A DNA stretch of 64,000 nt from an uncultured virus (IMG/VR IMGVR_UViG_3300033074_002116) (taxonomy: Duplodnaviria; Heunggongvirae; Uroviricota; Caudoviricetes). Positions 2,383 to 46,934 of this stretch are shown here, piece after piece (position 1 is the stretch's first letter; each line of letters starts with the position of its first letter). Position numbers and translations under genes: made by a program. Location of the stretch: IMG/VR virus record IMGVR_UViG_3300033074_002116; one strand, 5' to 3'. Under the pieces are notes generated by a model. That model saw only the letters and a list, made by a program, of their open reading frames with translations. It was not told the DNA's origin and made no database searches.

Positions 2383-4555
2383 ATGACGATTATTAAGGGC
2401 GATTCTGCAAAAACCACAAACGCCGAACGCGTACTCTCTTTATGTGGGATCGTAGGATCCGTTGCAGCAATGTTGTTTTGCTCATGGGTAGTTGGTGGAT
2501 CTAGTGTCTCAAGGTTGGGAGTTGCCTCCACAAAAATGTCTACAGACCCGTATGCGACCGGACTTGTTGAAAGTGTAATGCTTTTTATTGCGCTTCTTGT
2601 TTGGCATATATGGGTAGACTTTAGGGAGTGATCTGTAATGTCAAAACCGTTATCCTCCGAATTTTATTCTTTGGTTGCCGCACTTTTTACTATTGTTGCT
2701 GTTGTTTTTTTCTGTTTGGCTTGTCTCTCCTATTTTACATCAGATGAAGTCATTACCCGTGAAAACCAATGCACCAATTTTATGCAAAACATTTCGGGCA
2801 ATCAATCGATTTCAACCGTTGCATCGACAACATGTGCGTTTGGAGCGATATTTCCCCAAGAACAATACCCGCCGCGTCTGCCCAATCCGCAGATCAACGT
2901 CACGGTAAAAACGATCCATTTCCTCTGGCTTGGAGATTGTAAGGTTATGGCTTCGACCGGAGAGGTTTATCATTCCGCGGAGGATCAGATTTGCATGGCG
3001 CAGCCCGGGGAGAACCTGGCGGTATACCAGTACCGGACGCGGGATAATACGGTAACGGATTTGATTCAGATGGGGGCGTGATTGAAAATGAAAGGAAGTA
3101 TTTCCATTTTGATTATGGTGGGAATTTTGCTCCTTATTTTGATTTGGGCAATGTGTGGATTCCCCGCGAGTTTGCCCGAGGATAAAACAATAACTGTATC
3201 TTCTGCCAGTATGGCCCGTATGTCAGAATGGCAGGGACCAATGAGCCATGACGATTGTGTTTTAACTGATATTAACGGCGGATCCTACCATCTAATGCAA
3301 GATATAACATCGGAATATTGGTGCGTATCTGGGTGGAACCGGACTGAAGAGATCCATGCTGGTCAAAAATATCATATATCTTTACAGCGATCGCTGTTTA
3401 GCGAGATGAAGAATATAATATCTATCCAAAGAATTGAAGGGGTTTGATCAGAATGTCAAAAATTGATTGGGATTGGACGTTCGGCTCACTTGTCCAAATT
3501 CTTGCGTTCATATGCTGGGCAATCGACATATATTATGGATTCGCTACCTTGCAGCCCGTATTTGCGGTACAGGCGGTCGTCTGCTGCATTTGGTTTATCT
3601 TCGCTCCGTGGTGTGTATCAGAATACCTGCGATTCCTTACCGGGGAATGGCGAACGGTGCCGTCCATTTATAGGTATATTTTGTTTGATCGACATATCGG
3701 GGAAGCGGCGAGAACGGAACGTTTGGAGATTTAAAAATGGTGAATGATTGCGGAGTGTTTAACATTTTAAGTGCTGCGGCGTCTTTGCAGGCATTCGTTC
3801 TTGGATGCACCATTGTTGCTGCATTGTTAGGATTTTTTAAAGGGACAACATATGGACAAATTATTGAGGGCACGATTTTGCTTTTGATCGTATGCGTTAG
3901 TTTCTTTTATTATGATGCTCGGTATGAGGAATGTATCAAAGCCGAATGCGTTTTTAAAAGGGAGCTAGGCGATTGAATATGGCTACTTACAACCAAAAAA
4001 CCCACGAGCAATGTAAAAAGCGGGCCGAAACCGATCTGGCCTGCGTATTGGTACTTGCGGATTTCGAGCGTAGAAAATATGCGTTTCTTAACGGTTCGCT
4101 GAAATTTGTGGAGGGGGATTAAAAAAATGAAAAAATCGTTTAAGTTTGTATTCGCCGTGATCGTGATTTTAATGTTATTCAGTACGGCAAGCGCAGAATG
4201 TTTCTTTTTAGATCCGTTTTGCATTTCAGATAAAATATCCAAGAAAATGGTAGATTCTCACTATAGCGCTATTCAAGAATTAAATTCCGATCCCACATTA
4301 GTTGCGGCTTGTCACATGGAGTTCTGGAAGAATCAATCTAATGTGACTTGGTATGATGGCAGTGGAATACATTATGGCACCAAAGAGGGTGCGGGAACAC
4401 TCAATTATGTGTGTTATCGCCGCGATAACACTACACAAGTTGAATCGGTTGGGGTTTATGATTCATATTCTGCCGCATTTGAAACCGTGTTTTTCTATTA
4501 TCACGGCTATTTTAATGGAAATAATGGATGGGTATATGATGTAGGTGGTGCGTGA
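2383..4555 (+). other. Cluster of six small membrane/secreted protein genes (2383-2631, 2638-3081, 3088-3447, 3453-3734, 3737-3976, 4127-4555)
   Basis: Each has 1-2 hydrophobic helices or a signal peptide; co-directional and mostly tightly coupled. Confidence 0.65.
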
Positions 4556-6044: not shown

Positions 6045-6427
6045 AGTTGCAAACCCAATTCCATTTCAATGATCTGGTTTTAGCCTTAAAAGAGTTTAAG
6101 CTGCCCTGCGCACCAAGCCGGGAGAGCGAGATAGAACTTAGGCTCGTGCTTTTCCTTGAATCCAGAAAATTTCCTGTTAAAGAGCAGATTAGCTTTAAAA
6201 CCGGGCGCCTTGATGTTGTTGTCGGCCCGTATATTATTGAAGTTAAAAAGCTCGCGGGAAAAGGGATTGTCGAGCAGCTTGACAGGTACTCGGGTTTATG
6301 CGAAGGGCTTATTGTGGTTTGCTGGAGGGCAAGTGACCCACTGAAACTAATCTTTGCGATGGAAAAGGTATCTGCGCGAATACCTGTTGAATTGATCGAG
6401 GTTCGCAATACGTGCAGGATTGTCTGA
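6041..6427 (+). CDS. PD-(D/E)xK endonuclease
   Basis: ESEIE...GRLDVVVG.YIIEVKK...EQLDRY motifs. Confidence 0.75.
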   Translation: MKLQTQFHFNDLVLALKEFKLPCAPSRESEIELRLVLFLESRKFPVKEQISFKTGRLDVVVGPYIIEVKKLAGKGIVEQLDRYSGLCEGLIVVCWRASDPLKLIFAMEKVSARIPVELIEVRNTCRIV

Positions 6428-6429
6428 AA

Positions 6430-9264
6430 ATGGCAGAAGATGTGTTAAGTTATGGAACGTTGGAATATGTCTACGTAGAGCCGAAGGGATACCATGGCAA
6501 TCACTGGCTGGTAAGGGGGCACCAGCCTTGCCTTATGATATCGCGGGTTATCCCAAATTCCTGGTCGAATGGTGTTGGGGAACGGTGCGTGCCGGATAAC
6601 ATTTCTGCTGCCGAACATCTCCAATGGATTATGATGCGGTATCCGCTAAAGATACTCAGCCCGGAGATCTGGTTAAAGAAAGTTGAAATTATCAACGAGA
6701 TAACAAAGAAGAAGCAAAGCCTCAGGACTCTTACCGATTCAGTAAATATCGATCCGCAATTTATTGGAACACTGTTGCCCTTCCAAAAGAAGGGGGTTGA
6801 TTTTCTTTTAAAGACCAATGGCTGCGCTCTTGTTGCTGACGAGATGGGGTTGGGCAAAGGTCATCCGATGGATACAAAACTATTGTCTCCGGGGGGCTGG
6901 GTTAATATGGCGGATGTAAAAATTGGTACACTCCTTATAGGAAGTGATGGTACCCCATATCCAGTAAAGGGAATTTTTCCACGCGGTGAGATGGATATTT
7001 ACCGCGTCAATTTCCAAGATGGTGCGTCGGTTGAATGCACAGATGATCATCTTTGGCAAGTGAATTCCCCGCTACGAAAAAATAGGGGATATAAACCAAA
7101 AGTGTTGCCACTTTGTGAGATACGAGAAAAATTAACTCACAAAAATGGAAATCGCCAACATTTCATACCTTTGGTAAAACCGGTTAAATTTTCCGAGGTT
7201 GCTGAGGCTGGAATAGATATAGATCCATATATTTTGGGGATTATCTTGGGAGATGGCGGAATAAGTACAACTACGGTTATAATTTCATCAAATGATACTC
7301 AGATTATTGAATGTTTGTCTGAATATTTTGATAAAAAAAATATGAGCGTTAAAAAAAGGATTACGGGATGTGATTACGGGATTGTTCACAAAAGTTTTCC
7401 CCGAAGGAATTGGTTGGTTCAAAATCTAAAAAATTTGGGGTTGATGGGGCTTAAATCCCAGACAAAATTTGTTCCGCGTCGTTATCTTTATACTACGCCG
7501 GAAAACAGAATTGCTCTTTTACAGGGGCTTATGGATACCGATGGATATGTTTCCAAGGATGGAATGGTAGTACAATTCACAACGGTCTCTAAACAGCTTG
7601 CAGATGACGTTAAATTTATAGTTCGATCTTTGGGGGGCGTTGTTAAGTTATCGACTGAGATTCCCTCATTTACGTATAAAGGATTGAAAAAGAATGGGCA
7701 ACGGGCATATACCCTTTCAATATCCCTTCCTGGGGGTATTACTCCATTTCGATTAAAAAGGAAAGTTGCACTTTTTCATCCGAAAACAAAATATCCCCCG
7801 ACACGATGTATAAAATCTGTTGATTATGTGGGTAAAAAACGGGCCCAATGTATTGCTGTTGATTCTCCGGATCACCTTTACGTAACGGAGGATTTTATTT
7901 TAACTCATAATACTGTGGAGGCCTTGTCCTATCTCGTAACCTGTCCCGATGGCGGGTTCCCCTGCCTTATTATCGCCCCGCTTGTTACTCTGGTCAACTG
8001 GGAGCGCGAGATAGAACGGTTCATAAAGACTTCTTCCGGCAAGCCGTTTTCCGTTACCAAAATCCGCAGCGGGAAAAAGGGTCCGCTGACCGGGCAGAGA
8101 ACATTGAGTGACACCGGTGGTAATGCACAAATTTATCTTATAAATTACGATCTTGTTTCCCGTAGGCGCGATGACCTGGCGAAAATTCCCTTTAAAACTA
8201 TTATTGCCGATGAATGCCAGCATTTGAGAAACCCGGGATCGCAAAAGACTGCTGCTGCCCGTGAGCTTGTCGATCTCCAGAGTGTGCGCCACCGGATTGG
8301 GTTAAGCGGGACGCCGTGTTACAATCACGGGATTGAGATCTGGAGTATCTGCGATTTTATTAATCCCGGAATGCTCGGCACCTTTTCCGAGTTCAGAAGT
8401 GAGTTTATTTATAGTTTTGATCCGAAAGGCAGCATTGTTGAAAGCAAGCGGGGCGCACTTTATGAGATGCTTTCCGAGAGCGTGATGATCCGCCGCAGGA
8501 AATCCGACGTTTTAACCGATCTTCCGGATAAGACCCGATATCGTCAGCAGATAGATATCGATAAAGGATATTACGAGAGCGAGATGCGGAAGAACCTTGC
8601 CAAACTCCGTGAACGGCTCGAAGCTGCGCAGGCAAGAACTGACTTTAAGGCAATCGCTGAAACATCCGCGTATACTGAGTTCAAGGGCAATGAACGCATT
8701 GCTGCCGGAGTTGCAAAGGTTCCTTACGTTGTCGAATTTGTTACCGCAATGATGGAGAACGAAGAACCACTTGTGGTGTTTTGCCATCATATTGCCGTGC
8801 ATGATGCCTTGAAGGAAAAGCTGGCTGCCTATAAACCGTCCTGCATTATCGGTGGCCAGACCGATCTGCAAAGGCAGTTTGAGATTGACCAGTTCCAGAA
8901 CGGTAAAACCAAGCTGATGATTGCAGGGCTTCGGGCCGGTAATGTTGGGATTAATCTTACAAAAGCAAATTACGTCGTCTTTGCAGAGCTTGACTGGTCC
9001 CCGGCTATTCACCGGCAGGCTGAAGACCGCCTTCACCGGATCGGGCAGAAAAATGCAGTGTTTGCTTATTACCTGGAGGGCAAGGGAACGCTTGATGAGA
9101 AGATTGTCGGGGTTTTAACGGATAAGACTTTAGAACTCGATGAAATCCTGGGGGATGCGAACCGTGAAGAGGGCGCTACGCCGGATGAGCCATTGACCGA
9201 ACGCAACCGGCAATTTGTTAAGGCTATGGAAGAGAGGTTTTCAAAACTGAAGGTTGGTGCGTGA
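6430..9264 (+). CDS. SNF2-family (SMARCAL1/HARP-like) helicase, intein-containing
   Basis: LLPFQKKG, ADEMGLGK[intein]T, DECQH, LSGTP, VVFCHH, GINLT, QAEDRLHRIGQ. Confidence 0.95.
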   Translation: MAEDVLSYGTLEYVYVEPKGYHGNHWLVRGHQPCLMISRVIPNSWSNGVGERCVPDNISAAEHLQWIMMRYPLKILSPEIWLKKVEIINEITKKKQSLRTLTDSVNIDPQFIGTLLPFQKKGVDFLLKTNGCALVADEMGLGKGHPMDTKLLSPGGWVNMADVKIGTLLIGSDGTPYPVKGIFPRGEMDIYRVNFQDGASVECTDDHLWQVNSPLRKNRGYKPKVLPLCEIREKLTHKNGNRQHFIPLVKPVKFSEVAEAGIDIDPYILGIILGDGGISTTTVIISSNDTQIIECLSEYFDKKNMSVKKRITGCDYGIVHKSFPRRNWLVQNLKNLGLMGLKSQTKFVPRRYLYTTPENRIALLQGLMDTDGYVSKDGMVVQFTTVSKQLADDVKFIVRSLGGVVKLSTEIPSFTYKGLKKNGQRAYTLSISLPGGITPFRLKRKVALFHPKTKYPPTRCIKSVDYVGKKRAQCIAVDSPDHLYVTEDFILTHNTVEALSYLVTCPDGGFPCLIIAPLVTLVNWEREIERFIKTSSGKPFSVTKIRSGKKGPLTGQRTLSDTGGNAQIYLINYDLVSRRRDDLAKIPFKTIIADECQHLRNPGSQKTAAARELVDLQSVRHRIGLSGTPCYNHGIEIWSICDFINPGMLGTFSEFRSEFIYSFDPKGSIVESKRGALYEMLSESVMIRRRKSDVLTDLPDKTRYRQQIDIDKGYYESEMRKNLAKLRERLEAAQARTDFKAIAETSAYTEFKGNERIAAGVAKVPYVVEFVTAMMENEEPLVVFCHHIAVHDALKEKLAAYKPSCIIGGQTDLQRQFEIDQFQNGKTKLMIAGLRAGNVGINLTKANYVVFAELDWSPAIHRQAEDRLHRIGQKNAVFAYYLEGKGTLDEKIVGVLTDKTLELDEILGDANREEGATPDEPLTERNRQFVKAMEERFSKLKVGA
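6859..7911 (+). mobile_element. Class 3 intein (351 aa) with LAGLIDADG homing endonuclease, inserted in Walker A
   Basis: Starts GHPMDT, block B CTDDHLW, LAGLIDADG motifs ILGIILGDGG and LLQGLMDTDG, block F AQCIAVD, ends FILTHN followed by Thr. Confidence 0.92.
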
Positions 9265-10276: not shown

Positions 10277-10365
10277 GCAACCATAGAGTAGCGGTATATC
10301 TCGCCGGCACCTAGAGCCGGGCCGGGTCGCTCCCGGTGTCGTTGGTTCAAATCCAACTGGTTGCA
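10277..10365 (+). tRNA. Type II (long variable arm) tRNA, Leu-like, with CUA (amber) anticodon
   Basis: Acceptor GCAACCA/TGGTTGC+A; D stem GAG/CTC with GG in loop; anticodon arm CCGGC-ACCTAGA-GCCGG; variable arm CCGGG-TCGCT-CCCGG; T-arm GTTGG-TTCAAAT-CCAAC. Confidence 0.8.
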
Positions 10366-10474: not shown

Positions 10475-10546
10475 GTTGCGGTGGGCTAGAGGCAATGCTT
10501 GCTCGCTTGGGACGAGCAGACGCAGGTTCGATCCCTGCCCGTGACA
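10475..10546 (+). tRNA. tRNA-Pro(UGG)
   Basis: Acceptor GTTGCGG/CCGTGAC+A; anticodon arm GCTCG-CTTGGGA-CGAGC; T-arm GCAGG-TTCGATC-CCTGC. Confidence 0.85.
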
Positions 10547-10550
10547 TTTA

Positions 10551-10623
10551 AGCCCCGTAGTGTAGTGGTCAATCATGCAGGAATTTGGATCCTGCGACAT
10601 CAGTTCGAATCTGATCGGGGCTG
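10551..10623 (+). tRNA. tRNA-Gln(UUG), archaeal type (A1-U72)
   Basis: Acceptor AGCCCCG/CGGGGCT; anticodon arm CAGGA-ATTTGGA-TCCTG; T-arm ATCAG-TTCGAAT-CTGAT. Confidence 0.92.
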
Positions 10624-15619: not shown

Positions 15620-16120
15620 TCAGAGGACCACCGCCAGAATAAATGCTGCTGATATCGGAAGAATCAGGGGAAACCCGCGGTCAACGTATCCGAACATCTT
15701 AATTATACTATCCTTTCTGCCTAAATAGACATTTCGGATAAAGTTGGCCAGTAAAGCCCAGACCATTACTCCGATCAGATATAACATAACGGTGACAGCC
15801 ATGCCGCCCTGATTCGGGTGAAACGGGTTCTGCACGCAGAATACCGATATGATCCAGAGGAACAGCATATCGTCCCCCTGGATATATCCGAACCGCATGA
15901 GGGCGTAATAAATAATGCAGGGAAGGATTGAGACTGCCGCGGCTTCCCATGTGTACATCCCTGTGATGTAAAAGTAAATGAATAGGGGGAGGTTTGCTGC
16001 CGCGAGAATGATCTGGTCCAGTATTGGTACCTGTCTGGATTTGAGATCGTGATAGCAGAATACCGGGATGGCGCAAAGGATTGTGGCAATGGGCCAGTAA
16101 AGGCCGTATTGTTCGATCAC
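15620..16120 (-). CDS. Prepilin peptidase (A24 family, PibD/FlaK-like aspartic peptidase)
   Basis: First Asp motif YHDLKSRQVP, GxGD-like motif GYIQGDDMLFL, C-terminal GFPLILPISAAFIL; multi-pass membrane; GTG start overlaps the upstream TGA. Confidence 0.75.
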   Translation of the reverse strand: MIEQYGLYWPIATILCAIPVFCYHDLKSRQVPILDQIILAAANLPLFIYFYITGMYTWEAAAVSILPCIIYYALMRFGYIQGDDMLFLWIISVFCVQNPFHPNQGGMAVTVMLYLIGVMVWALLANFIRNVYLGRKDSIIKMFGYVDRGFPLILPISAAFILAVVL

Positions 16121-17706
16121 TGTACCTTCCTCGTTCTCTTCGCCACTGAGATTAGCCACTTAACTAACCGATACGCCCCATACAACCCGACAAGACATAG
16201 CCCCCACATCAGATACATGATCTCGTGTTCGTTTTGCACAACTTCCTGCTGCGCCTTGACTTGCTCGTTTGATGGTGTGACTGAGACATATTGTACCGGT
16301 CCGGGCACCTGAACTGTTACGGTCTTGGTTATAACCTGCGGGGTGACAAATGGCGATGCGCCCACGTATTCGATGTACTGCGGAGGGATATAGTGCGCCG
16401 GCGGTTCTTTGTAAACGTAGAACGGAACCGTCATCGTTGCGCCTTGCGGGGAGGACACCGTGATGTAATGGTTGCCCGGGAACATGTTGCCATAATCTAC
16501 CGGTATGAGCGAGTTAAACTGCCGCCACATTCCGGGATCTGCGGTGTTTACATTCTCTGCGACAGATTTCCAGGTCTTATTCATCTTGTAGAAATACGAA
16601 CCCTGATCGATGGTAATAGTTAATGGGGTACCATTCGCTACATTAGTATACCCTCGAACGTTATACCACGTCTGATTGTCCGGATTCTGTAACGCGTCGA
16701 TGCGCATGATCTGGATTTCCGGTTCTGCATACTGCACATTCAGGGTTGTTATTGAATCGTCTATGGATTTTTTTACCATTTCCTTTAAGGCAGATTCTAC
16801 ATTCTGGGGGTTCAATCCATAGATGTTTTTAACTTCGCCATTGCGGAATGGTGATACCAGGGCAGGGTACCGGGTTGTCGTAAATTTTTCCGGTTGGTAC
16901 CCCGGATCATAGTACTCTTCGTAAATGCTGTTATTCCCGGGCGATACTTCGATCAAGTGATAGTTCCCGGTTTCCAGAGACCATTTCGGAGTTTCCAGGA
17001 CTATTGCGGATTTTGCACCCTGATCTAATATCTGTTGTTCGTTTGCATATCCAAACAACCACCAGTGCACCCCTCCCGACACTGCCTGAATTGCCAGCGT
17101 ATCCCCACGGGCAATTAAGATATCCGCTGCTTTCTTCTGGGGCAGATAGGATTCCCGTTGAGGTACCGTCGTTTTAATTTCTTGAATCGCCACTTGTTCA
17201 TGACTTTTATTTTCCGGCACCGGACAGGTCATATTGACTTTAAACATCCTGAGATTGCCTGCCCCCTCTGTTTCCCCATTGTCGTACCGCTGGTACCAAT
17301 AGCCGGTCCGATTTCCGAAGACGAATGGATCAATGTAGAAGTTCTTTAGTTTTGATGCAGTATTGGGCATATCGATTTCGTATTTTGGTGTGGCGTTTTC
17401 GGGAGAGTACGCATCGAAATAGGTTCCGTAATATGAAAGATGCGGCACCCCCCATCCCAATGAGGAGATATCTACGGTGCTATTTAGTGGAACGCAATCG
17501 CCGTTTTCAATATGCAAAGGGGCGCCATATGTCGGGAGCGGGGTTCCATTCTGGGCTTGTGTCGGGGGAATAGAATAACCCGAATAAGTCTGGTTTCCAA
17601 TAAATGTTGAGTTTATAGGTATATCGGATGAAAGGTTGATTTCTTCTGCGCAAACACTGCCGATGCAAATTGCTGAGAGAATTAAAAATAATAAAACTTT
17701 ATACAT
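16117..17706 (-). CDS. Surface glycoprotein resembling Methanomicrobiales S-layer (DUF3821-type) proteins, with C-terminal TM anchor
   Basis: Signal peptide, many N-x-S/T sequons, WWLFG and VRGYTNVANGTPLTITID motifs, Thr/Pro linker, TM plus basic tail. Confidence 0.5.
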   Translation of the reverse strand: MYKVLLFLILSAICIGSVCAEEINLSSDIPINSTFIGNQTYSGYSIPPTQAQNGTPLPTYGAPLHIENGDCVPLNSTVDISSLGWGVPHLSYYGTYFDAYSPENATPKYEIDMPNTASKLKNFYIDPFVFGNRTGYWYQRYDNGETEGAGNLRMFKVNMTCPVPENKSHEQVAIQEIKTTVPQRESYLPQKKAADILIARGDTLAIQAVSGGVHWWLFGYANEQQILDQGAKSAIVLETPKWSLETGNYHLIEVSPGNNSIYEEYYDPGYQPEKFTTTRYPALVSPFRNGEVKNIYGLNPQNVESALKEMVKKSIDDSITTLNVQYAEPEIQIMRIDALQNPDNQTWYNVRGYTNVANGTPLTITIDQGSYFYKMNKTWKSVAENVNTADPGMWRQFNSLIPVDYGNMFPGNHYITVSSPQGATMTVPFYVYKEPPAHYIPPQYIEYVGASPFVTPQVITKTVTVQVPGPVQYVSVTPSNEQVKAQQEVVQNEHEIMYLMWGLCLVGLYGAYRLVKWLISVAKRTRKVQ

Positions 17707-18821
17707 TTGGGATCACTCCTGCACGGACACCCGCAAAAATTAATTCTTCTGCGAAGATGAGCAAGGCTACTAGTCCGCATAAAAATATCAAGAGTTCCCA
17801 GTTATATTCCTTTGATGCGGTTTCGGTCATTTGTTTTCTCCCTTTATTCTTTTTAGATTTGGTTTCTTTATGGCTGTGATCCACACACACCCCATTGCAA
17901 GTGCAATAGTTAGGGCAATATAAAATCCCATTGGATCTAACCCGGCAATGCTATAGATATGGAGGCAAAATGCACATCCGATAATTACGCCAATTACTGA
18001 GATTGCCAAATTTAAAATGCTCATATTGTGCCCTTGTTTTTGTTCACTTTTCCCCGGTGTAAGAAATAGATAAACTGCCCCGATGCAGAAATGCCCATGG
18101 CTGTCCCGATGTAGATCTGTGTATAGTTCCATCCCATGTCACATATTATTTCAAATAATGCAGCGGTGACAAGGCATATGCCAAAAAGTACCCCCAGATA
18201 AAATATTACAAAACTAACACTTTCTGTTTTCACTCAATGCACCTTCTTACATTCACTGCAAATCTTTCCACACGAACCACATTTTGCCGGTTCTAAAAAA
18301 AGGCGGAGTTAATGATATGCTGCACGTCGGATTCTCACAACAATCGCCATTTTTAATTTGTTTAAGCATATCAATAATACTGGCTTCCATTACGTCGTAC
18401 ATGCTTCCTCCATAAATTGGTAATTTCCTTTATCGTCAATCCTTTCGATGTTTAACCGGTTTGCGTATAATTTTATGGCCCTCCCTGCTGCATGGCTGCT
18501 TTTGAGATTGCAGGTTTTGGCAATTGTATCGGATTTAAATTTCTTCACGCCATTTGCTTTTAGACGGACAAGCTCTGTTAATACTGAATTGGATCTTGAT
18601 CTTGTTTGTTTTCTTTTTATGAGCGCCATGATTTTAATTCACCCCGTTGCTTTAGATCCGCAGATGATTGCGCCGGTGGCTAGTGCGACTATACATAAAA
18701 TTCCTATAAGCTTACCATTATCTGTAAGGCATTTCGATAATATTGGAATTACCCCCACAAGCAAAAGCGTGCATACAAGTTGGATTAAAGATAATTTGTA
18801 CCACATTGATCTACTAATCAT
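17699..18821 (-). other. Cluster of tiny TM proteins (17699-17830, 17827-18024, 18021-18233, 18639-18821) and a wHTH-like protein (18390-18629)
   Basis: Overlapping ORFs with hydrophobic helices; FKSDTIAKTCNLKSSHAAGRAIK HTH-like segment. Confidence 0.55.
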
Positions 18822-19312
18822 CGATACCTCCTGAGGTAACTATTGTCCGGCAAAGCACTGGAAAATATCGTGCCGTTCTCATACATGGTCCCGTTTGTTA
18901 CCATATCACTTTCTGCAAGGGCTATATGATATACTTGTGAGTCTTCGTTATCTTCAATATGCGACCATGCGAACTGCTTCTTTGTTGATACCATTGAAAG
19001 CCCCACTGATAGCGACCCCGTGCCTCCTTCGAAGAAGATTACCGTTCCCGAATAAGGTGCGTTCTCTAGGGTCCACGTCCCGATTATCGGATCGTTAACC
19101 TGTTGGATCTGTGTTGGGGGCTGAACTGTTGCGGGCGAGATGATTTTCCCTGAATTCGTGGGTGAAACGAATGTTGTTTCCGGTGATTGCATTGTTGTTA
19201 TTGCAGCGAGGGTGTTTTCTTTTGACTGATGTACTGATTGTGTTGCGCACCCTGCCAAGAGTGTGACGGCGATAACTACAAATGCCAAAAGGATCGGTAA
19301 GATTTTACGCAT
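18818..19312 (-). CDS. Lipoprotein
   Basis: Lipobox LLAG|C, Thr/Pro linker, DPIIGTW beta domain. Confidence 0.7.
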   Translation of the reverse strand: MRKILPILLAFVVIAVTLLAGCATQSVHQSKENTLAAITTMQSPETTFVSPTNSGKIISPATVQPPTQIQQVNDPIIGTWTLENAPYSGTVIFFEGGTGSLSVGLSMVSTKKQFAWSHIEDNEDSQVYHIALAESDMVTNGTMYENGTIFSSALPDNSYLRRYR

Positions 19313-19937
19313 GCCCCATATCCTCTTTTAATTCTTTCAAAAGACCGTACACGAATTCTAAAATCTCCTGCGCGCATTTCTGCCGCTGCATTGGCTCGTT
19401 TATGCCGTAAGATTTTAAGAGTTCGATAAGTTTGTACAGGAGATAATTCTGGAATTTTTTTAATCCTTTCTTTTGGTTGGCAAGATTAATTTTTGTTGCG
19501 ATTGCACCAATAAGTTTACCCGTTTCTCGTATTATCTCTCCCTGCATGTTCTGATCGGTGATTCCGTACTTGGTCAAGATTGGTTGCATTCCCTTAACTA
19601 CAACTTCGGGTAAATCGGTCATTCTTCCCTCTCCTTCAAATGTTCTTTAATTGCAATAACCCATTCAGGTAACTCTTTTCTTTCAATGTAATTCCTGCAC
19701 CATCGCGGTACGCACACCGCAGCAATGACCCACCCCGCGGCAACAAAGACGATAATGAAGATAATTAAGATCCCAAGCCATATTGGAATCGGGGTGCTAG
19801 TGCACATCCTTGTTGCATCGAGTGGGCATGGATAGTGAGAGGCCAGGTAGAATTCGTAGGCACAGAATTGGCCCAGGATGAGGCCAACTACAATGCACAA
19901 TACTGAAATTATGCAGAAATCTTTTGGGCGGGTTATG

Positions 19938-20078
19938 TTAAGTTTCATGGATCTTTCCCCTCCCATCGTTATCGATCCATTTCTGTACCACAGCTTTCAT
20001 GCTGGTCTTTTCAAGAATGGCAATGCGACCCAGTTGATCGTGATGGTCCTGATCAAGCGGAACCGTCTTATTGGACAT
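19938..20078 (-). CDS. RHH DNA-binding protein (46 aa, not in ORF track)
   Basis: MSNKTVPLDQDHHDQLGRIAILEKTSMKAVVQKWID; first gene after a TATA box near 20105. Confidence 0.6.
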   Translation of the reverse strand: MSNKTVPLDQDHHDQLGRIAILEKTSMKAVVQKWIDNDGRGKIHET

Positions 20079-20452
20079 TAAAGATATACTAATGCACTAA
20101 TGTAATAAATAGATTGTGCAAAAAAGGGTTTACTCTTTCTTCTTCTCTTTCTCTGGTTCCTTCTTTGAGGGTTGCTGAGCCTGAGTCTGCCCCGTGTTCA
20201 GCTCGAACTGCTGGCGGAATATTTTACCGTAGGTGAATACTTTTGCCCAATGGGGATCCCGCTGGGCCAGTGTTGCCATGTGGTCCAGCGATTCGGCAAA
20301 GAATTCATTGCCGTAAATCCGCATCTCGTCTGCCTGGAACTGTGCTACCTGTGCATTGTGCACGGCTTCGGCAATCTTCTTATCCATCTCTTCTTTCGTA
20401 AACGATGTCTGTTCATCAGAAGTTTCTGTCATGTTTCTTTTCCTCGGTTTCA

Positions 20453-20971
20453 TTAGTATGAGTCGTCCGTTTCGTTGTTTCCCGTTTCGGGTTCTGCCAT
20501 AGATCGCATTGCTTTCCAGCTTAAGTACAATCCGATTGTGTTCAGGAGTGTTAAAATAAGTAATGGGAGAAGGCAGGAGTATGCGATCCAGTCAAAGTGG
20601 TAAATAGTGTGGATCTCCATGAGCGCAATGGTCTGGTTGGTTGCAATTGAGGTTGCGCCATAGGAGGTAACCTGATCAACGCTGAACGCTGTTGTGAATG
20701 CGAATCCCGCCGGGAACCATGCCATTACTGAAACGATCCCGCGCTCGCCGTAATCAAACCCTTTGTGGAATGAGATGATAATAAGAGCGATTGCAAGAGC
20801 GATTGCACCGACCCAAAGATAGTAAGGAGTTGCTGGCTGGTTGTTGAGGAGCCAGGTCTGGTTGACAATCGCTGTGTATCCTGCTGGCACGGTCTGCGTC
20901 ATTTCAGCGGATACTGAGCTGGCAAGAGCGAGGATTAAAATAATGAGCAGGAAAGCCCGCGGGATTCGCAT
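20453..20971 (-). CDS. Membrane protein (signal peptide plus 3 TM), putative virion module
   Basis: Hydrophobicity pattern; NQT sequons. Confidence 0.65.
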   Translation of the reverse strand: MRIPRAFLLIILILALASSVSAEMTQTVPAGYTAIVNQTWLLNNQPATPYYLWVGAIALAIALIIISFHKGFDYGERGIVSVMAWFPAGFAFTTAFSVDQVTSYGATSIATNQTIALMEIHTIYHFDWIAYSCLLPLLILTLLNTIGLYLSWKAMRSMAEPETGNNETDDSY

Positions 20972-21028
20972 GATTAGAATGTGTGTAATTGATTTATTTA
21001 AAATATTGGCAAGGCTCTTAAAGGGCGC

Positions 21029-21586
21029 GTGATCACTCCTGAGTGGAGAGAGAAATTACGGCAGGCGAGACTTGGGAAAAAAGCGAGCCCCGAAACCAGG
21101 TTAAAAATGAGTGAGGCACATTCTGGCGAAAAAAATAGTTTTTTTGGTAGGGGACACTCTGAAGAGACCAAAAAAGCCATTAGTGATTTTAGGATACAAA
21201 ATGGAATTGCTGCGGGTAAAAACAATCCGATGTATATCAATGGTAATAGTTTTTTACCATATTGCGAGAAATTTAATCCTGAATTTAAGAGGAGGGTCCG
21301 GGCATTTTTTAAAAATGTTTGCCAAAGATGCGGACATGTTCATCAAGAGGGCGAACCGAATATGACCGTTCACCATGTAAATTATAGAAAAGACTCTTGC
21401 TGTAATAAATACGTGATACCATTATTTATTACGGTATGCACCCCTACGACAAAAGGGCAACCTTGCCATTCTATAACTTCACACGATCGAGATTATTGGG
21501 AGATCTGTTTCACTCAATTAATTAACAACAAGTACCGTGGGAAATGTTACTTTACGAAAGAAGAGTATTACAAAACTGATAATTAG
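21029..21586 (+). CDS. NUMOD3-HNH homing endonuclease
   Basis: SPETRLKMSEAHSGEKNSFFGRGHSEETKKAIS (NUMOD3 repeats); CQRCG...VHHVNY...CH. Confidence 0.85.
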   Translation: MITPEWREKLRQARLGKKASPETRLKMSEAHSGEKNSFFGRGHSEETKKAISDFRIQNGIAAGKNNPMYINGNSFLPYCEKFNPEFKRRVRAFFKNVCQRCGHVHQEGEPNMTVHHVNYRKDSCCNKYVIPLFITVCTPTTKGQPCHSITSHDRDYWEICFTQLINNKYRGKCYFTKEEYYKTDN

Positions 21587-21590
21587 GACA

Positions 21591-21613
21591 CTTTTGGGGG
21601 TTTTCCCCAAAAG
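21591..21613. terminator. Hairpin between the convergent HNH and MCP-like genes
   Basis: CTTTTGGGG-GTTTT-CCCCAAAAG, 9-bp stem. Confidence 0.5.
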
Positions 21614-21639
21614 GAAACGCTGCCCAAATTGAGGCGCAT

Positions 21640-21969
21640 TTAGCGCCTGCCCTGCGTAACGCCCCCCAATCCGATGAGCATATACATGATGCCCGCGAAC
21701 CCTGCAACAATCAGGCCGACGCCTCCGATGGTGAAAGCGGTCGAGATATTGCTGAGCAGGTTAGAGAGCGTGGTGTTGAGCGTAGAGTTGGTGATCGAGC
21801 TTGCAACAGCAACGTAGAGTGCGTTGATGAGCACAAGGCCGATGATAAGGAAGGCTGCACCGACCACGATGGCCATGATGGAACCAACGAGGATAGCGGT
21901 AAATGCACCCTTAGAGATGCCGAGCCATTCCCGTACACCTTCTGCTTTCTTGGAAATCTCTGCAATCAT
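21640..21969 (-). CDS. Putative major capsid protein, spindle-shaped-virus type (SSV1 VP1/His1-like two-helix hairpin)
   Basis: Charged 21-aa leader ending SKG, two long hydrophobic helices joined by a loop with NST/NTT/NIS sequons, basic tail QGRR; own TATA (TTTAATA near 22011-22017), GGGGTGA SD, strongly biased codons (ATC, CTC, AAC, GCA). Confidence 0.7.
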   Translation of the reverse strand: MIAEISKKAEGVREWLGISKGAFTAILVGSIMAIVVGAAFLIIGLVLINALYVAVASSITNSTLNTTLSNLLSNISTAFTIGGVGLIVAGFAGIMYMLIGLGGVTQGRR

Positions 21970-22069
21970 AAACAGTTTCACCCCCTGATCACTATATGAA
22001 ATTTAGAAAGTATTAAATAGTTGTTCAACTCTATTCAATATTAATCATTATTAATGAGAGTGTTTAACT

Positions 22070-26603: not shown

Positions 26604-27504
26604 CGCTTCCCCCAGTTTAACGGATTTAAGAAAGAGAAGGTGCTTGGCGCACTCTGCTGTTGCTGCGGCATTTTGACGACCTGCTCATTCTGGTGGCGCG
26701 TGGTGATGATTGCCGATACCGGAGTAAGGCCATCCATCCGGAATTGTCCGCCTGCGGGCATGATTGCACGGAGCCGGAAGATCATATCACACACGTCTGC
26801 GAGTGCCACGTTCTCCATGCCTTCGCTGTGCGATTCTGCCAGAATGTCTGAGAAGTCCCGGGTAAGTTCGTGATACATTGAGATATCGTAGTTGGGGATC
26901 TTGGGAATCAAGTTCATGAAGTACCCTATCAGCACCAGATAATCTCCGATCTTGTCCGGCTCTGTCGGCAGCTGTCCCTCGAACAGCATGGTCATCATCT
27001 TAGCATCGAACCCGGTACCGGACTTCCTACCTCCACCCGCATCGGCAAACCCGCTCTGGTATGCCTGGTCTATTGCGGTCGATGCAATAATGTCCTTGCT
27101 TTTCATGTCGTTCGGAGAGATAGTGCCTATGTCGCCTGCGCTCATTTCTTACCTCCGGGAATTACAAAAGAATCTGATTTCATTATGGCCCAGTCATCGT
27201 TGTAAATCAAGACCCCAACTTTGTCTATAATCTTTTCACAATCCTGAACGGCTACAGCCCACCCAATTATCTCTTCTCCTTTTTCGTCGAGATTGGAGGT
27301 GTATTTTGTCCATGCTTCATTTGCATCCCTCAGGCATTCTGCAATAAGATCGTCATAAGTCTGATTCTTCAGGAGCTTTGATGAAATAATAAGATTACTT
27401 ATGAGCTTTCTTGTATTCGGGACCATTACACTCGGGTCATTGCTCCTTGAAAGAACATACAATGCCCAGTTATCTCCTTTTAACTGATCGGGTAATTTAT
27501 CCAT
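26600..27504 (-). other. Two helical hypothetical proteins (26600-27145, 27142-27504)
   Basis: Translationally coupled to the ATPase operon. Confidence 0.7.
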
Positions 27505-28628
27505 TATTCCTCTCCATTTTCAATTACACTTAAAAGCCGGTAAATCTGTTCGGATGTGCACCCGGTCTTTCTCTGGAGAAGCCGTATATTGGCTTCCCCT
27601 TTATTTTCTTCAATTGCCTTTTTCATTATCGGGATCATTTTTTCTTTTAGATCGTCCCATTTCTTCTCTCTCTTTCCTCTTGGATCCGCCATGTCTTCTT
27701 CCATGTCTGCGGTTTCATCAATAATCCTCCGCGCTGCTTCATCCCGCATTACATCGTATTTATCTGCATATCCTTTGTAGGGCTCAAATATATCCGGATG
27801 AAATGCACACCAGAGATCGAATTTCCTGTCGAAAAACGAGAGCCGCTTTTCATAGAATTTTTTCTTATTAAACCGTAACTTTACATCGGATGAGTTTATC
27901 TTTACCAGGTTAAATCCATTGGCGTGGAATGGCTTGTAGATACCAATTTTAAAATCCGTGAGTTCCCTGACGCCGAGATCGACCTGGCTGGCCATGGGGG
28001 AGTTGAGGCATACTACCCAACGCATCGTCCGGCAGACCGATAGGATCTTGTTGAAGTTTTTATTTTTCTGGAGCGCGAAATCCCTGTTGCCTATCGCTAC
28101 CTGACTGTCATCAATAATAAGGAACTGTCGTTTCTTTGCGCGCTGGAGAATTCTTGATATGGCTTTTGTATCCTCAAGAAGGGCGCAGTTATCCAGAGTG
28201 AAATAATCTAATGGGCTGCCCCCGTTAAAGGCTGCCATATCGATTGCGTACCGTATGGCAAGCGAGATCGAGGTGTATGATTTCCCATCCCCTTTGTCTC
28301 CCTCGACAGTAAAAGATACATCGAGCTTATCCATACCACTTGTTCTTCCCACGAGGAATTCGCTAAATGGAGATGGTGGGATCGGCAGGCACTCGTTAAA
28401 TATTATTGTGCATAATTCTGCCATTCGCTTTACTGCTGAAGGATTCTTTGCCCCGAGATCGACATAACCTTTGGTATAAATATCCATGAGGTTTATGTCT
28501 TTTATTGCCGAGTGTTTTTTAAGAAATTCCGGGTCGGAACATACCGTTATTTTATCGATATCGTCCTGCCCTATTTTCAGAATGCTTTTGCTATTGTAGA
28601 TGGTGCGCGAGCCAAAAGGATCGATCAT
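27504..28628 (-). CDS. P-loop ATPase, putative assembly/extrusion ATPase, with C-terminal HTH
   Basis: Walker A GDKGDGKS, Walker B FLIIDDS, VDLGVREL; C-terminal IRLLQRKTGCTSEQIYRLL. Confidence 0.85.
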   Translation of the reverse strand: MIDPFGSRTIYNSKSILKIGQDDIDKITVCSDPEFLKKHSAIKDINLMDIYTKGYVDLGAKNPSAVKRMAELCTIIFNECLPIPPSPFSEFLVGRTSGMDKLDVSFTVEGDKGDGKSYTSISLAIRYAIDMAAFNGGSPLDYFTLDNCALLEDTKAISRILQRAKKRQFLIIDDSQVAIGNRDFALQKNKNFNKILSVCRTMRWVVCLNSPMASQVDLGVRELTDFKIGIYKPFHANGFNLVKINSSDVKLRFNKKKFYEKRLSFFDRKFDLWCAFHPDIFEPYKGYADKYDVMRDEAARRIIDETADMEEDMADPRGKREKKWDDLKEKMIPIMKKAIEENKGEANIRLLQRKTGCTSEQIYRLLSVIENGEE

Positions 28629-35297: not shown

Positions 35298-36106
35298 ATC
35301 GCACCTTCCGAGGGAAACATTTTCAGGTAAGCGTTTGTCAGGAACAACACATCCACTGCCCAGAACGTTACCGATATTGCACCCCATACTGCAATGTACG
35401 CCGGCGTATCCGTTACCCCCGGCCATATACCCTGAATTACATTGGTGATCACGGCGGCAGAATTTATCACGCTGATAAATGCATTCCCAAGGAAATTGAG
35501 CATTCCAATGAATGCGGTGGTGAGCCCATAAAGAACGCTCGCGACATCCCCGAGAGCCCCGGCGTTCTGTACTGTTGACGATGATGTCTGGAACTGGATA
35601 TTGGAGTACTGTGTGCATGTCGCAGATGGCGGGCAATAACTCTGGTTATAGATCGGCGCGCTGGTAACGTCCGTGCTGAATATCCCTAGAGCAGGGGTTA
35701 GTCCCAAACAGACCTGGAACAAGATAATAAACATCATTATATTAATGTACTTCGATCCCGGTCCTGCAATGCCGTTGATTTGTTTGTTCTGCTCGTTTGC
35801 ATAAATTATTACCCCGAACAGACCGGCTATGATCAGGCAGGCAAGGGCATTTAACTGGTTGGAGAATGACAGCCACCCGAACATGTATTCCATTCCGGCG
35901 AATATTGGGATGAATACGCAATATGCGGCCTCTCCCCTTGATCCTGTTGTGGCCGCCACCAGCAAAAGCAGGATTACTGCTACATAATTATAATACATCT
36001 GCGCTGTGGTGATGTCCATGAAATTCTCAAATCCCAAAGGTACGAGGATTCCTGTTGGCCCGCTCAATATTGCCGATCCGACAATGGCCAGAGACGACGT
36101 AATCAA
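35294..36106 (-). CDS. Multi-pass membrane protein, possible adhesin anchor
   Basis: At least five hydrophobic helices; GTGA-coupled to the adhesin gene. Confidence 0.7.
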   Translation of the reverse strand: MITSSLAIVGSAILSGPTGILVPLGFENFMDITTAQMYYNYVAVILLLLVAATTGSRGEAAYCVFIPIFAGMEYMFGWLSFSNQLNALACLIIAGLFGVIIYANEQNKQINGIAGPGSKYINIMMFIILFQVCLGLTPALGIFSTDVTSAPIYNQSYCPPSATCTQYSNIQFQTSSSTVQNAGALGDVASVLYGLTTAFIGMLNFLGNAFISVINSAAVITNVIQGIWPGVTDTPAYIAVWGAISVTFWAVDVLFLTNAYLKMFPSEGAI

Positions 36107-39100
36107 CCACTCCGCACCGGGTACATCCCGTAATTAATTGTCATTCCCCTTACATTAGGTATGGTGTAATTAAACTCTATTAAAGATGTTCCCGGATTAC
36201 CGTAATCGTGAGACCAGAATACCGTGCCGTTGTCTTTGCAGGTCAGGTTCATGAAGAGATCTGTTGTCAGACCGAGAGGATCCTGATACTGATAATTTGC
36301 CGTTACATAAGATTTGTTTGGTTCGGAGAGCCAGACATATGATTTTGCCAGTTGGGTTGCCGTGGTGTTGTACCCCAACGACTGGGAGCTTGTTGGGCAA
36401 TATAGAATGTAATCATTATCTTCCGGAGCTAATGATTTCTGGCAACTTACCCCTGCCGTGCTGTTTACCATTGAGAGGGAATATGTTAACGAGGGAAACA
36501 TTGTAAATACCTGCGCGCCATCCGTTGCTGTGATTCCTTGCATAGCCATGCCGCTATTCATCATGGTTTCAGCCACGCTTGCCGATACCCCGAATGCCTG
36601 TTCAAGGAATGTGGCGTTGTTCCCCGGTAATGTTGAATTTACATACGATGCTGTAATAGTAATGCCTTTAAGGGGATTTGCCCATAGATCGAGAACCCTT
36701 AAACGGACCTGGTGCTGGGTGTAGATAATGTTGGTGTTTTGTGATTGCGTTGTCGCCGCCGTCATCTGCACCGTTTCCACCCGATCCGCAGTCATAATAT
36801 AGGAGACGGTTTTGCTTTGGTACCCATCTGAATACAAGTACAATACCACAGTCGAGTACCCGAATGTACCGGTATAGGTTCCGGTCGGGGTATTAACTGA
36901 GGTGCCATCCGCTGCATTAACCACCCTCACAATTGGGATCGGAAGATTCGTTGAAGAATCAACGAAGTTCAGTGTTAACGTATACAGCGGATCCATTACA
37001 AGATCCTGTTGTGTGTATCCAGAGAATCCGGATTTAACCCAGATATAATTTATCTTCGATGTAGTGTTGGATCCAATCCCGTTTGTAACGGTGAGATTAA
37101 CGGTATAATTCCCGGCAGAGGAATACGCGTGAACCGGGTTTTGCAATGTGGATCCGAATGTATCGCCAAAATCCCAGGACCATGAAGTTGGAATACCGGT
37201 TGATGTATCATTGAACTGCACCGATGATCCAACGGATACCGTAGTTGGTGTGCCGGTAAAATTCGCTACCGGGGAAGCAGGAACAGCGGTGGTGACATTG
37301 ATATAATTGGTTCTTGTCAGCGTATTGGTAACGCTGGCATTTTCTGACATATACGCGGTTTCAGATACTGTGTATAATCCAATAGATGAATAAGTATAAG
37401 TCGGGTTTTTTACACTCGACGTATTTCCGTCTCCAAACGACCACGAATATGCGCTCGGATACCCGAAAGAATTGTCCGTGAATGTAACCGGGAATCCCCC
37501 TGCTACCAACGTCGGAGATCCGGTGAAGTTCGCAGTTATTGGTCCCCACGTTCCGATAATCGCGCTATAATTAACGCTAGAGCCGAACGTGTAATATGTC
37601 CCGTCTGTTTCATACTGGCTTGATCCAAACGAGAAATTATCCAGCGATCCGGGCGAGATGTATTTGGTGTAGGTTATGTCGAAATCCAGAATAGCTGTGC
37701 TCGACGTTGGAATCGGTATTCCACCGGATTTGTTCACTACAAAGTTTGCGAATCCCCCCGTGGAATTAATTGATGATGAAATCAAGGATAGGCCAGCGGT
37801 CTGCGAAGTATTTACACGGAGATTGCTTACTCCGACATGCGCGGTATTCCACGTTAAATTTCCACGGACGCTGGTCGTGTTCGTGATATTCTGTATTACA
37901 ACCGTTTCGGTATATGGCGTCTGATTGTTGATCTGCGTACTGGATGTAAGCGATTTATATTTTATAACTGAACCCGGAGACGATCCCCATTTCCCTGCAA
38001 CGGCGTAACCGGACGAAAGCGTGTTAAACGGCCAATAGGTGAGATTGGTTGAGTCGTAATATTTACTTGCGTTCGTAAACGATGCCAGAACGCTATACCC
38101 GGGAGCTGCATAAGATACGTAGGATACATTGAGATCTAAGATTGCGGCCCCGTTTGGATAGGGAATAGCAATCCCGGCTGCCCGACTTACACTGAAGTTG
38201 ATCCAGTTTGCATTAATGTCATATGAATCTAATACTAATCCTGATGGAATTGATGATGTGTTTATCCTGAGATTGTTTACTGCAAATACGGTTTGGTTAA
38301 ATGAGATATTGCCAATTACATTTGTGGTGTTTGTTATATTTCTCACTACTACTGTGGCGGTATAAGGCGTTCCATTGTTAATTGAAAGGGATTCGCCGGC
38401 TTTGAATTTTATCCATGAATATGGGTTTGGATCTGCTCCGGATGTAACATTGATCCACTGCGATGCAGACGTGTTGCTTCCCGCTGCGTTCGTGGCCGTG
38501 AGATTCACCGACCAGTTTCCCACTCCAAATGTGTGCGTGGCGTTCTGCACTGTACTGGTGTTTCCGTCACCGAAATCCCAGTGCCACAGGGTTGGATCTA
38601 ATGATGTTGTGTCGTTAAACTGCACTGATAGGGGAGCGGTGCCCGAGGTGGCGTTAGCCGTAAACGCGGCCGTTCCTGTAGCGAGGTGCGCCCATACATA
38701 TTCTCCGATCAGTCGCTGCCCTTCCGTGTTTGGATGGACAACATCACGCATCAGGCTCTCGTTGATTTCGTCGGGGATTCCGTTGCCCGGGATACTATCC
38801 ACGGCATCAAATGCCTTGATGTACGACCGATTGCGGGCATCAAGACACGCTTCAATTGCATATATTTTGGCCCATTGCTCGGAATACGTGGAGTTCCAGA
38901 ATCTTGTCGTGTTGAACACTGTATTGATGAGGATGTAGGGGATACTTCCGGCCGCCGATTGGGAGTCTGCAATTCCTATGAGGTTTTCACACGTTCCCTC
39001 ACCGGTCGTATAATTCCAGTCGTTCGCTCCGAATAACGTGAAACTTTTCCGTGGGACCCCGTATAATGGATGTGTTGCCACATTTGCAAGGCCCCAGATT

Positions 39101-43192: not shown

Positions 43193-43311
43193 AATCGCAG
43201 CCTCCGCCTAATGAATTTATCAAAAGACTCGTTTGGTTTCTTTTGCTTTTGAACTTCTCTAACGGTTTTTTTGGTTAATCTCTGGCTGGTGTAATCAGAT
43301 TTTCCACTCAT
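43189..43311 (-). CDS. RHH/antitoxin-like protein (40 aa, not in ORF track) heading the adhesin operon
   Basis: MSGKSDYTSQRLTKKTVREVQKQKKPNESFDKFIRRRL; ATGA overlap; TTTATAAATA upstream. Confidence 0.65.
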   Translation of the reverse strand: MSGKSDYTSQRLTKKTVREVQKQKKPNESFDKFIRRRLRL

Positions 43312-46541: not shown

Positions 46542-46934
46542 TTAGAGGGTCGTTTGTGAAATTACTCGCATACTTTCATCATCGAAATATCCTGTTACGA
46601 CGACACGGTTGTTTCCCGGTGATTTTGCCACCACCGATGTTACTGATCCGACTGCAACGGGGGTTCCGTTTATCCAGGTGTTTGATCCACCATCAACGCT
46701 TGCTGCAATACCAAGCAACGAACCGGCGTCCTGTCCCCCAATATATGTTATGGAGATGGCGCTAGTATTAACACGAGTTTCTGTTACAGCAACAACTTTG
46801 GTTGTTTGGATCTGCCCCGACATGCCAAATACGAAGGCGGCGATGACTGCGGTAAGTATGACCGTAATCGCAACCATGAGGATTGCGCCAATTACCGGGG
46901 ATACAGCTTCGGTTTTATTTATGCGGTTAATCAT
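46542..46934 (-). CDS. Archaeal type IV pilin (DUF1628/Pilin_N)
   Basis: Class III signal-peptide N-terminus KTEAVSPVIGAILMVAITVILTAVIAAFVFGM; ITYIGGQDA motif typical of Methanomicrobiales pilins. Confidence 0.9.
   Translation of the reverse strand: MINRINKTEAVSPVIGAILMVAITVILTAVIAAFVFGMSGQIQTTKVVAVTETRVNTSAISITYIGGQDAGSLLGIAASVDGGSNTWINGTPVAVGSVTSVVAKSPGNNRVVVTGYFDDESMRVISQTTL

Follow-up and report, generated by a model that had tools for sequence, protein, structure and literature searches.

Does a virus that carries its own prepilin-type peptidase use it to mature its coat protein? The question is raised by a locus in the IMG/VR virus record IMGVR_UViG_3300033074_002116, of which we analyzed a stretch of 64,000 nucleotides (nt), here called the window. 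An earlier note, made from the sequence alone, had described in one module of this DNA an A24-type peptidase and a candidate major capsid protein with a pilin-type (class III) cleavage site, and had proposed that the first processes the second. Both genes lie where that note put them:

15620..16159, minus strand: predicted minimal A24 (FlaK/PibD-type) aspartyl signal peptidase of 179 amino acids (aa), with six predicted helices
21640..21981, minus strand: candidate major capsid protein precursor, 113 aa from the GTG at 21981 or 109 aa from the ATG at 21969
21904..21969, minus strand: predicted class III-type leader of 21-22 aa, with the predicted cut following either codon 21 (K-G↓A) or codon 22 (G-A↓F)

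The reading that the virus-encoded peptidase matures the coat protein is, on the sequence evidence, the best supported, and we favor it with moderate confidence. It draws on the family and catalytic residues of the enzyme, on a conserved junction in the coat protein, and on a conserved linkage of the two genes.

A minimal A24-type peptidase

The peptidase contains the motifs CYHD38LKSR and GYIQGD96D97 and a C-terminal FPLILPISAAF. D38, encoded at 16046-16048, and D97, encoded at 15869-15871 within G-D-D, are the candidate catalytic aspartates. Taken alone, the sequence is too divergent to pass the Pfam threshold for the A24 family (14.3 bits and an E value of 0.056 against PF01478, with a cut-off of 26.5 bits), and it matched nothing in NCBIfam and no PDB sequence. 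A word-index search returned 3 close relatives, and a full HMMER profile search returned 58 representatives at E<=1e-3, 27 of them at E<=1e-10. In an alignment of 52 sequences, only D38, D97, and P112 are invariant, while R42, G95, P164, I169, and A172 are kept in at least 90%. The profile built from these 52 members matched FlaK (PDB 3S0X) at E=2e-7, with D38 on the Asp of FlaK QDFRSRE and D97 on the Asp of FlaK GGGD; a second short stretch of the alignment covers the C-terminal P-x-x-x-P-I-S/T helix. PF01478 was matched by 44 of the 52 members at E<=0.1, the best at 6.8e-10.

The AlphaFold2 (AF2) model of the peptidase has six long helices (predicted local distance difference test score, 92.5; predicted template modeling score, 0.86). 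A fold search with this model placed FlaK 3S0X at the top (probability, 1.00; template modeling scores, 0.62/0.60), and the next match had an E value of 1.3, which leaves FlaK as the only convincing PDB fold match. The A24 assignment of the earlier note is borne out by the two invariant aspartates, the profile match to FlaK, and the FlaK-like fold. Judged from alignment and model, the 15620-16159 product is very probably a catalytically competent minimal A24 peptidase. As in FlaK, PibD, and EppA (MEROPS A24, PF01478), the two catalytic aspartates lie in helix 1 and helix 4, the second after a glycine (GxGD/GxHyD type), within a six-helix core like that of FlaK. The members of the window family are much shorter than FlaK (about 150-200 aa), and FlaK residues ~150-208, between helices 5 and 6, are without a counterpart.

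A candidate coat protein with a class III-like junction

The candidate coat protein opens with a basic leader and closes with a basic C terminus; between them lie two long hydrophobic helices and a loop that bears N-x-S/T sequons. The AF2 model shows a leader helix followed by a long hairpin (H24-60/H66-111), that is, a hydrophobic two-helix hairpin of ~90 aa after the leader. We found 15 close relatives, and a profile search at E<=1e-3 extended the family to 167 clusters, none with a Pfam domain. Family statistics are given for the 120 listed of these 167 relatives. At least one N-x-S/T sequon is present in 119 of the 120, and K or R occurs within the last six residues in all 120. Two tandem copies of the gene were seen in 7 related loci.

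With the ATG at 21969 as the start, translation gives a 21-aa leader, MIAEISKKAEGVREWLGISKG, and then AFTAILVGSIMAIVVG. The junction reads ...WLGISKG-AFTAILVGSIMAIVVG, with an uncharged hydrophobic run after it, just as the earlier note had written (a charged 21-aa leader ending in GISKG and then a hydrophobic helix). We compiled junction statistics from 32 aligned members and from the 108 of the 120 listed relatives that could be parsed by pattern; the 12 unparsed ones have the same layout by eye. The residue before an invariant F-T-A is A (92 relatives) or G (16 relatives) and never any other. K or R stands at position -2 in 79 of the 108 and at -2 or -3 in 97. The consensus of the junction is N-K-K-A-F-T-A-I-L-V-G-S. 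Leaders are 8-24 aa long in nearly all relatives, most commonly 17 aa, and variable in sequence. In the 32 aligned members, entropy is 2-3 bits at -8 to -5 and 0-0.5 bits from -1 onward; conservation begins sharply at the junction, which is nearly invariant from -1 on.

Archaeal class III signal peptides have a short charged leader, a small residue (G, A, or S) at -1, usually a charged residue at -2, and then a hydrophobic stretch of ~20 residues. The candidate coat protein has all of these, and by its sequence the junction is of class III design, a resemblance that is kept across the family rather than peculiar to the window. In these features the predicted substrates of the window enzyme are like those of FlaK, PibD, and EppA. 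When such a site is listed as two residues and then the following two, the cut comes after the second listed residue. Characterized archaeal sites in the part of PMC4371748 consulted (Table 1) are KG-QV, KA-IS, KG-IS, RA-LS, DA-VS, and RA-VS. For most of the coat-protein family, the natural A24 site would be K-A↓F or K-G↓F. For the window's own clade (S-K-G-A-F), both K-G↓A and G-A↓F are possible. The earlier note had put the cut after Gly21; K-G↓A agrees with this, but the cut may come after Ala22 instead, because the family consensus N-K-K-A↓F-T-A points there. A complex prediction of the peptidase with the leader and helix 1 scored 0.00 and gave no answer, so that it counts neither way.

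Searches for relatives of the coat protein outside this family gave little. No capsid family came up in Pfam and PHROG scans of the family, the phage collection yielded no tblastn match to the protein, and the pilin/archaellin profiles PF07790 and TIGR02537 did not match the candidate even at E<=10. A PDB fold search with the hairpin model was uninformative, yielding generic helical hairpins only. The nearest Pfam-labeled Atlas clusters are VP1_VP3 (0.85) and His1_capsid (0.84), which serve as leads only. Automatic names in the family are labels and not evidence: relative P0132 is named "competence protein ComGC" (pilin-like), and other members have unrelated names (metal-binding, ABC transporter).

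Linkage of the peptidase and coat-protein genes

A scan for the coat-protein family yielded 35 metagenome loci and, in the viral collection, one true relative; a further alignment search of viral contigs returned only the already-known record, and alignment searches of viral contigs with the peptidase family returned no loci. The viral relative, G001, is a 58-kb IMG/VR virus record (74% complete according to CheckV) that has ~20 genes in common with the window, peptidase and coat protein included. We ran the peptidase profile on all six-frame open reading frames (ORFs) of the coat-protein loci. The peptidase was detected in L001, L008, L015, and L024 (truncated at the contig end in the last of these), always on the same strand as the coat-protein gene and 5.5-8 kb downstream of it. 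These are all four of the loci with at least 7 kb of sequence downstream of the coat-protein gene. The other 32 have at most 4.2 kb there and no peptidase, and they are uninformative because the gene, where seen, lies farther away. The earlier note had proposed testing whether the two genes co-occur in related genomes, and in every informative locus they do.

Three further genes of the module are as follows:

16117..17706, minus strand: predicted surface/virion glycoprotein of 529 aa, with an N-terminal Sec-type signal, DUF3821 (PF12863, E=4.1e-5), and a C-terminal membrane anchor
20453..20971, minus strand: membrane protein of 172 aa, whose homologues adjoin the coat-protein gene in L008 and L001/G001
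21029..21586, plus strand: NUMOD3-type homing endonuclease (PF07460, E=2.8e-15; phrog_314), between the coat-protein and 172-aa genes

In the window, the glycoprotein ORF overlaps the start of the peptidase gene by 43 nt, and its homologues lie 0-500 nt upstream of the peptidase in L008, L015, L024, and L001. The peptidase follows the glycoprotein gene on the same strand in five of five cases, the window and these four loci. It shares a module with the coat protein, as had been claimed, and is a core gene of that structural module, not cargo. The NUMOD3 endonuclease, on the opposite strand beside the coat-protein gene, occupies the same place in L008 and G001.

Other possible substrates

We scanned the N termini encoded in the window and in G001 for [KRDE][GAS] followed by a hydrophobic run. 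The scan gave four candidates in the window: the coat protein, a pilin-like protein, and two small ORFs. It also flagged, at 4106, a Sec-type signal and, at 27556, an ORF antisense to an ATPase gene. In G001, the coat protein was the sole match among real genes, and it is the only class III-like N terminus common to the two genomes. The pilin-like protein is the following:

46542..46934, minus strand: accessory archaeal type IV pilin-like protein (PF07790, E=2.4e-16; TIGR02537, E=4.5e-11), with a probable start at M25 and the site ...KTEA↓VSPVIG

It lies ~30 kb from the peptidase, at the high-coordinate edge of an island of 35-38% G+C (guanine plus cytosine). G001, which may be incomplete, has no Pilin_N match and no BLAST counterpart of this protein. 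The pilin looks accessory and the peptidase core, because the pilin stands beside the low-G+C island and lacks a counterpart in G001, which keeps the peptidase; the same caution about the completeness of G001 applies. Pilin-like proteins also occur in other viruses, as three PHROG families match at E~1e-18. The two small ORFs are putative genes not conserved in G001: 3082-3447 (plus strand) begins with MKMKG and then a hydrophobic run, and 18021-18233 (minus strand) begins with MKTES and then a hydrophobic run.

Resemblance to coat proteins of spindle-shaped viruses

Spindle-shaped viruses are the most widespread type of archaea-specific virus, and the maturation of VP1 in one group of them, the fuselloviruses, is a long-standing question. 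In the sections of PMC5748691 consulted, VP1 taken from SSV1 virions starts at Glu66, and infectivity is lost when the VP1 N terminus or the five residues before E66 are deleted. The same sections report, in 2017, that the VP1 protease is unknown and that no SSV1 ORF is protease-like; the term PibD is absent from the paper. In the SSV1 record, the residues before E66 are K-L-T-K-G, and a hydrophobic helix follows. [KR][GA]↓E precedes the first hydrophobic helix in six of six aligned fusellovirus VP1 precursors (SSV1 VP1 at L039 12567-13001, the others from L044-L047 and L049), two of which have leaders of only 14-16 aa. His1 VP21 (L040 7341-7562) begins with MVEIDDG and then a hydrophobic helix, and it resembles acidic haloarchaeal sites. 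By their sequences, the N-terminal sites of the fusellovirus VP1 proteins and of His1 VP21 look like sites for host prepilin peptidase (PibD); literature searches found no paper that calls them so.

The earlier note had invoked the processing of SSV1 VP1, and the known site K-G↓E66 indeed has the same form as the junction in the window. Like SSV1 VP1, the candidate would be a hydrophobic two-helix coat precursor with a poorly conserved N-terminal extension, a conserved patch before the cut, and a site of the form [KR][GA]↓ ahead of a hydrophobic helix. Its tandem copies recall the paralogues VP1 and VP3 of fuselloviruses. The layout described for SSV19 VP1 in the accessible part of PMC9351363 has the termini inside and the loop outside, and the AF2 model of the candidate agrees with a hydrophobic two-helix hairpin of ~70-100 aa with an external loop. 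There are also differences. In the text of PMC5748691 available to us, SSV1 encodes no recognizable protease, unlike the virus in the window, and fuselloviruses have Glu at +1, where the window family has Phe or Ala.

A term search found no mention of a protease or peptidase in two papers that appeared later, PMC9351363 and PMC9608457, and the portion consulted of a preprint on the ANME-1 virome, which describes large spindle-virus genomes with two major capsid protein genes, mentions no peptidase. In the excerpts of PMC7217056 consulted, a pibD mutant of Sulfolobus islandicus does not support SSV9: the virus still adsorbs, and its genome does not replicate. This result is silent on VP1 processing because replication fails.

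Proposed processing and alternatives

In the processing that we propose, the coat-protein precursor would insert into the host membrane as a helical hairpin, with the basic leader and the basic C terminus in the cytoplasm and the sequon-bearing loop outside. The peptidase, with D38 (helix 1) and D97 (helix 4) as its active site, would remove the 8-24-aa leader at the cytoplasmic face, cutting after the small residue of the N-K-[KRG]-[AG] junction. A mature hydrophobic subunit of ~88 aa, starting at or next to F-T-A-I-L-V-G-S, would then assemble into the virion. The earlier note had gone further and spoken of a hybrid pilus-maturation/virion-assembly system. The A24 enzyme, its place as a core gene, and the matching junction bear that interpretation out in part, but the phrase goes beyond the data because no pilus-assembly ATPase or PilC was seen; what is borrowed from the pilus pathway is the signal-peptide processing step only.

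Several points weigh against this processing. The candidate does not match PF06281 (VP1_VP3) or PF25665 (His1_capsid), nor do 16 members of its family at E<=10 or anything in G001. Nor could we show homology to SSV1 VP3, His1 VP21, SSV1 VP1, and the six fusellovirus VP1 proteins, since hhalign gave the family only 0.06-9% (9% with SSV1 VP1, 7% with the six fusellovirus VP1 proteins, and 0.06% with His1 VP21); the VP1 alignment puts K-G↓A on K-G↓E and is too weak to count as homology. The capsid assignment of the earlier note finds support in the hairpin architecture and the context and none in these comparisons; the 21640-21981 product is probably a capsid protein, on grounds of architecture and context, not homology. 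At the junction, 11 of the 108 parsed relatives lack K or R at both -2 and -3. A Lys or Arg before a transmembrane helix is also expected from the positive-inside rule, and the small residue at -1 might be no more than part of the mature helix. Co-occurrence covers only the four informative loci and the window, and the linkage counts leave aside the genomic context of the other ~50 peptidase relatives. Finally, the canonical pilin at 46542 is a textbook alternative substrate within the window itself.

That pilin is the starting point of a different explanation, in which the peptidase serves pilin-like proteins (the virus's own pilin, accessory class III-like proteins, or host pilins and archaellins) and remodels the host surface for adhesion, superinfection exclusion, or receptor control, while the leader of the coat protein is cut by a host enzyme or stays uncut. 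Archaeal hosts normally have an A24 peptidase of their own, and a viral copy for host pilins therefore seems redundant. A clear Pilin_N/TIGR02537 protein is present, small ORF 3082-3447 has a suggestive N terminus, and pilin-like proteins are known in other viruses. In the part of PMC6563490 that we could consult, thaumarchaeal integrative-conjugative elements carry prepilin peptidases together with pilins. Against this stand the distance of the pilin from the peptidase, its position at the low-G+C island, its absence from G001 (estimated as only 74% complete), which keeps the peptidase, and the lack of a pilus ATPase or PilC in the Pfam and PHROG scans of the window. We consider this explanation unlikely.

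We regard it as improbable, and more so, that the 113-aa protein is a small virion or host-membrane protein (envelope, fusion, or egress) that is not a capsid protein or is not cleaved, the K-A junction being only a positive-inside signal and the peptidase having its substrate elsewhere. Two-helix hairpins are common, the fold search with this one was uninformative, and neither sequence nor profile searches tied it to the known capsid families of spindle-shaped viruses. A minor membrane protein would fit poorly with the abundance of the family (167 clusters), its frequent tandem duplication, as in VP1/VP3 of fuselloviruses, and its conserved loop sequons and basic termini, which match the SSV19 VP1 layout as given in the consulted part of PMC9351363. 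Nor did the 79 (PHROG) or 55 (Pfam) ORFs scanned in the window include another candidate among HK97-type or double-jelly-roll capsid proteins, portals, or genuine terminases.

The element might instead be a plasmid or integrative element with a secretion or pilus-type module that includes the peptidase. This is very improbable. An integrase-like fragment at 759-1409 (phrog_1, E=4.7e-8) would fit such an element, as would the A24 peptidases on archaeal integrative-conjugative elements that the consulted sections of PMC6563490 describe. Set against these are the lack of any VirB4, VirD4, FlaI, or PilC-type gene in the scans of the window, the IMG/VR virus record of the relative G001, the large fiber-like proteins with PKD and GTA-spike domains, an ATPase of the SSV1/His1 type, and the absence of coat-protein relatives from 185,579 species-representative genomes.

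Relation to other maturation systems

If the virus-encoded peptidase does mature the coat protein, a known enzyme class acting on a known type of signal would be used by a virus for coat-protein maturation, and this would be the first described intramembrane aspartyl signal peptidase serving as a capsid maturation protease. In our literature searches, no paper connected prepilin peptidases with the processing of capsid proteins; subscription journals lay outside their coverage, and an earlier mention is possible. Unlike FlaK, PibD, and EppA, the viral enzyme is encoded in a viral structural module, and its proposed substrate, rather than forming filaments, is a two-helix hairpin that would remain membrane or virion bound. 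The pVIII procoat of Ff phages is also a small coat-protein precursor inserted in the membrane, and a membrane-bound signal peptidase takes off its leader before the virion is assembled there. That peptidase is the host type I leader peptidase, acting on the outer face of the membrane; the window enzyme is virus encoded and of type IV (A24), and its cut would fall on the cytoplasmic side. Prohead proteases of the HK97 type resemble the window enzyme in being viral proteases that trim the N terminus of a capsid protein and are encoded in the structural module, but they are unrelated soluble serine proteases inside the procapsid, whereas the window enzyme belongs to the intramembrane aspartyl proteases. 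The thaumarchaeal integrative-conjugative elements, as described in the part of PMC6563490 consulted, likewise have an A24 peptidase on an archaeal mobile element; there it accompanies pilins, VirB4/VirD4, and FlaI/PilT conjugation ATPases, an apparatus absent from the scans of the window.

A broader proposal, which we put forward tentatively and hold to be somewhat doubtful, is that spindle-shaped archaeal viruses generally make their coat proteins with class III signal peptides, which A24 peptidases remove: host PibD in fuselloviruses, a host enzyme for His1 VP21, and a minimal viral enzyme here. If so, the VP1 protease, long unknown, would have a name; the assembly of virions at the archaeal membrane would be linked to the pathway that processes pilins, and the first coat-protein helix might have a pilin-like origin. 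The question of VP1 maturation becomes directly testable, both here and in Sulfolobus with PibD.

The virus lineage and other features of the window

The gene content of the window is viral throughout, according to Pfam, PHROG, and tRNA scans; the window is part of a large (at least 58-64 kb) archaeal virus genome, whose host is probably a methanogen. The Pfam scan covered 55 ORFs and the PHROG scan 79. Pfam matches include RadC, an MT-A70 methyltransferase, an Ant-type antirepressor, and the very large proteins with PKD and GTA-spike domains. The ATPase mentioned above is the following:

27504..28628, minus strand: AAA-type ATPase (phrog_5484, E=1.7e-4, a family annotated "DnaA-like"), conserved in G001

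The label "DnaA-like" also stands on the records of SSV1 B251 (NC_001338) and His1 ORF16 (NC_007914).

Synteny with the window wraps around the contig ends of G001. Given this and the ~20 shared genes, the two sequences appear to belong to one virus lineage with genomes of ~60 kb. Window genes 36103-39804 and 41453-43192 match opposite ends of G001, which points to a circular or circularly permuted genome in G001, near complete despite the 74% estimate. Since no species-representative genome matched the coat protein, the searches gave no provirus and no host assignment. The 216-aa integrase-like ORF at 759-1409 (plus strand) covers only part of the phrog_1 profile, and no attachment site or host flank was seen near it within the window.

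The low-G+C island extends over ~42000-47000 (35-38% against ~45%). It holds genes matching PHROGs of unknown function at 44342-45484 (phrog_22469, E=2.4e-58) and 43465-44358 (phrog_27163), and these, like the pilin gene 46542-46934, have no counterpart in G001. An SNF2-family helicase at 6412-9264 (plus strand) is split at residues ~130-516 by an intein that includes a LAGLIDADG homing endonuclease. PHROG matches of this helicase to a "terminase large subunit" were rejected as evidence of packaging because they are confined to residues 116-516, which include the intein/LAGLIDADG insert, and are probably matches to the intein.

Three tRNA genes were found in the window, at 10277-10365 (plus strand), 10475-10546, and 10551-10623, among them tRNA-Pro and tRNA-Gln. 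The one at 10277-10365 has 89 nt and the anticodon CTA, which reads the TAG stop; ARAGORN labels it Pyl. To judge from the sequence, its variable arm is long, which is not so in canonical tRNA-Pyl. Rfam detected it (47.7 bits) only under permissive filters and modeled an extra 16 nt inside the anticodon arm, and an intron is therefore an alternative. TAG closes only 4 of 72 ORFs of at least 120 aa, and readthrough of TAG joins no large genes. From its anticodon, the 10277-10365 gene may encode an amber-suppressor tRNA carried by the virus.

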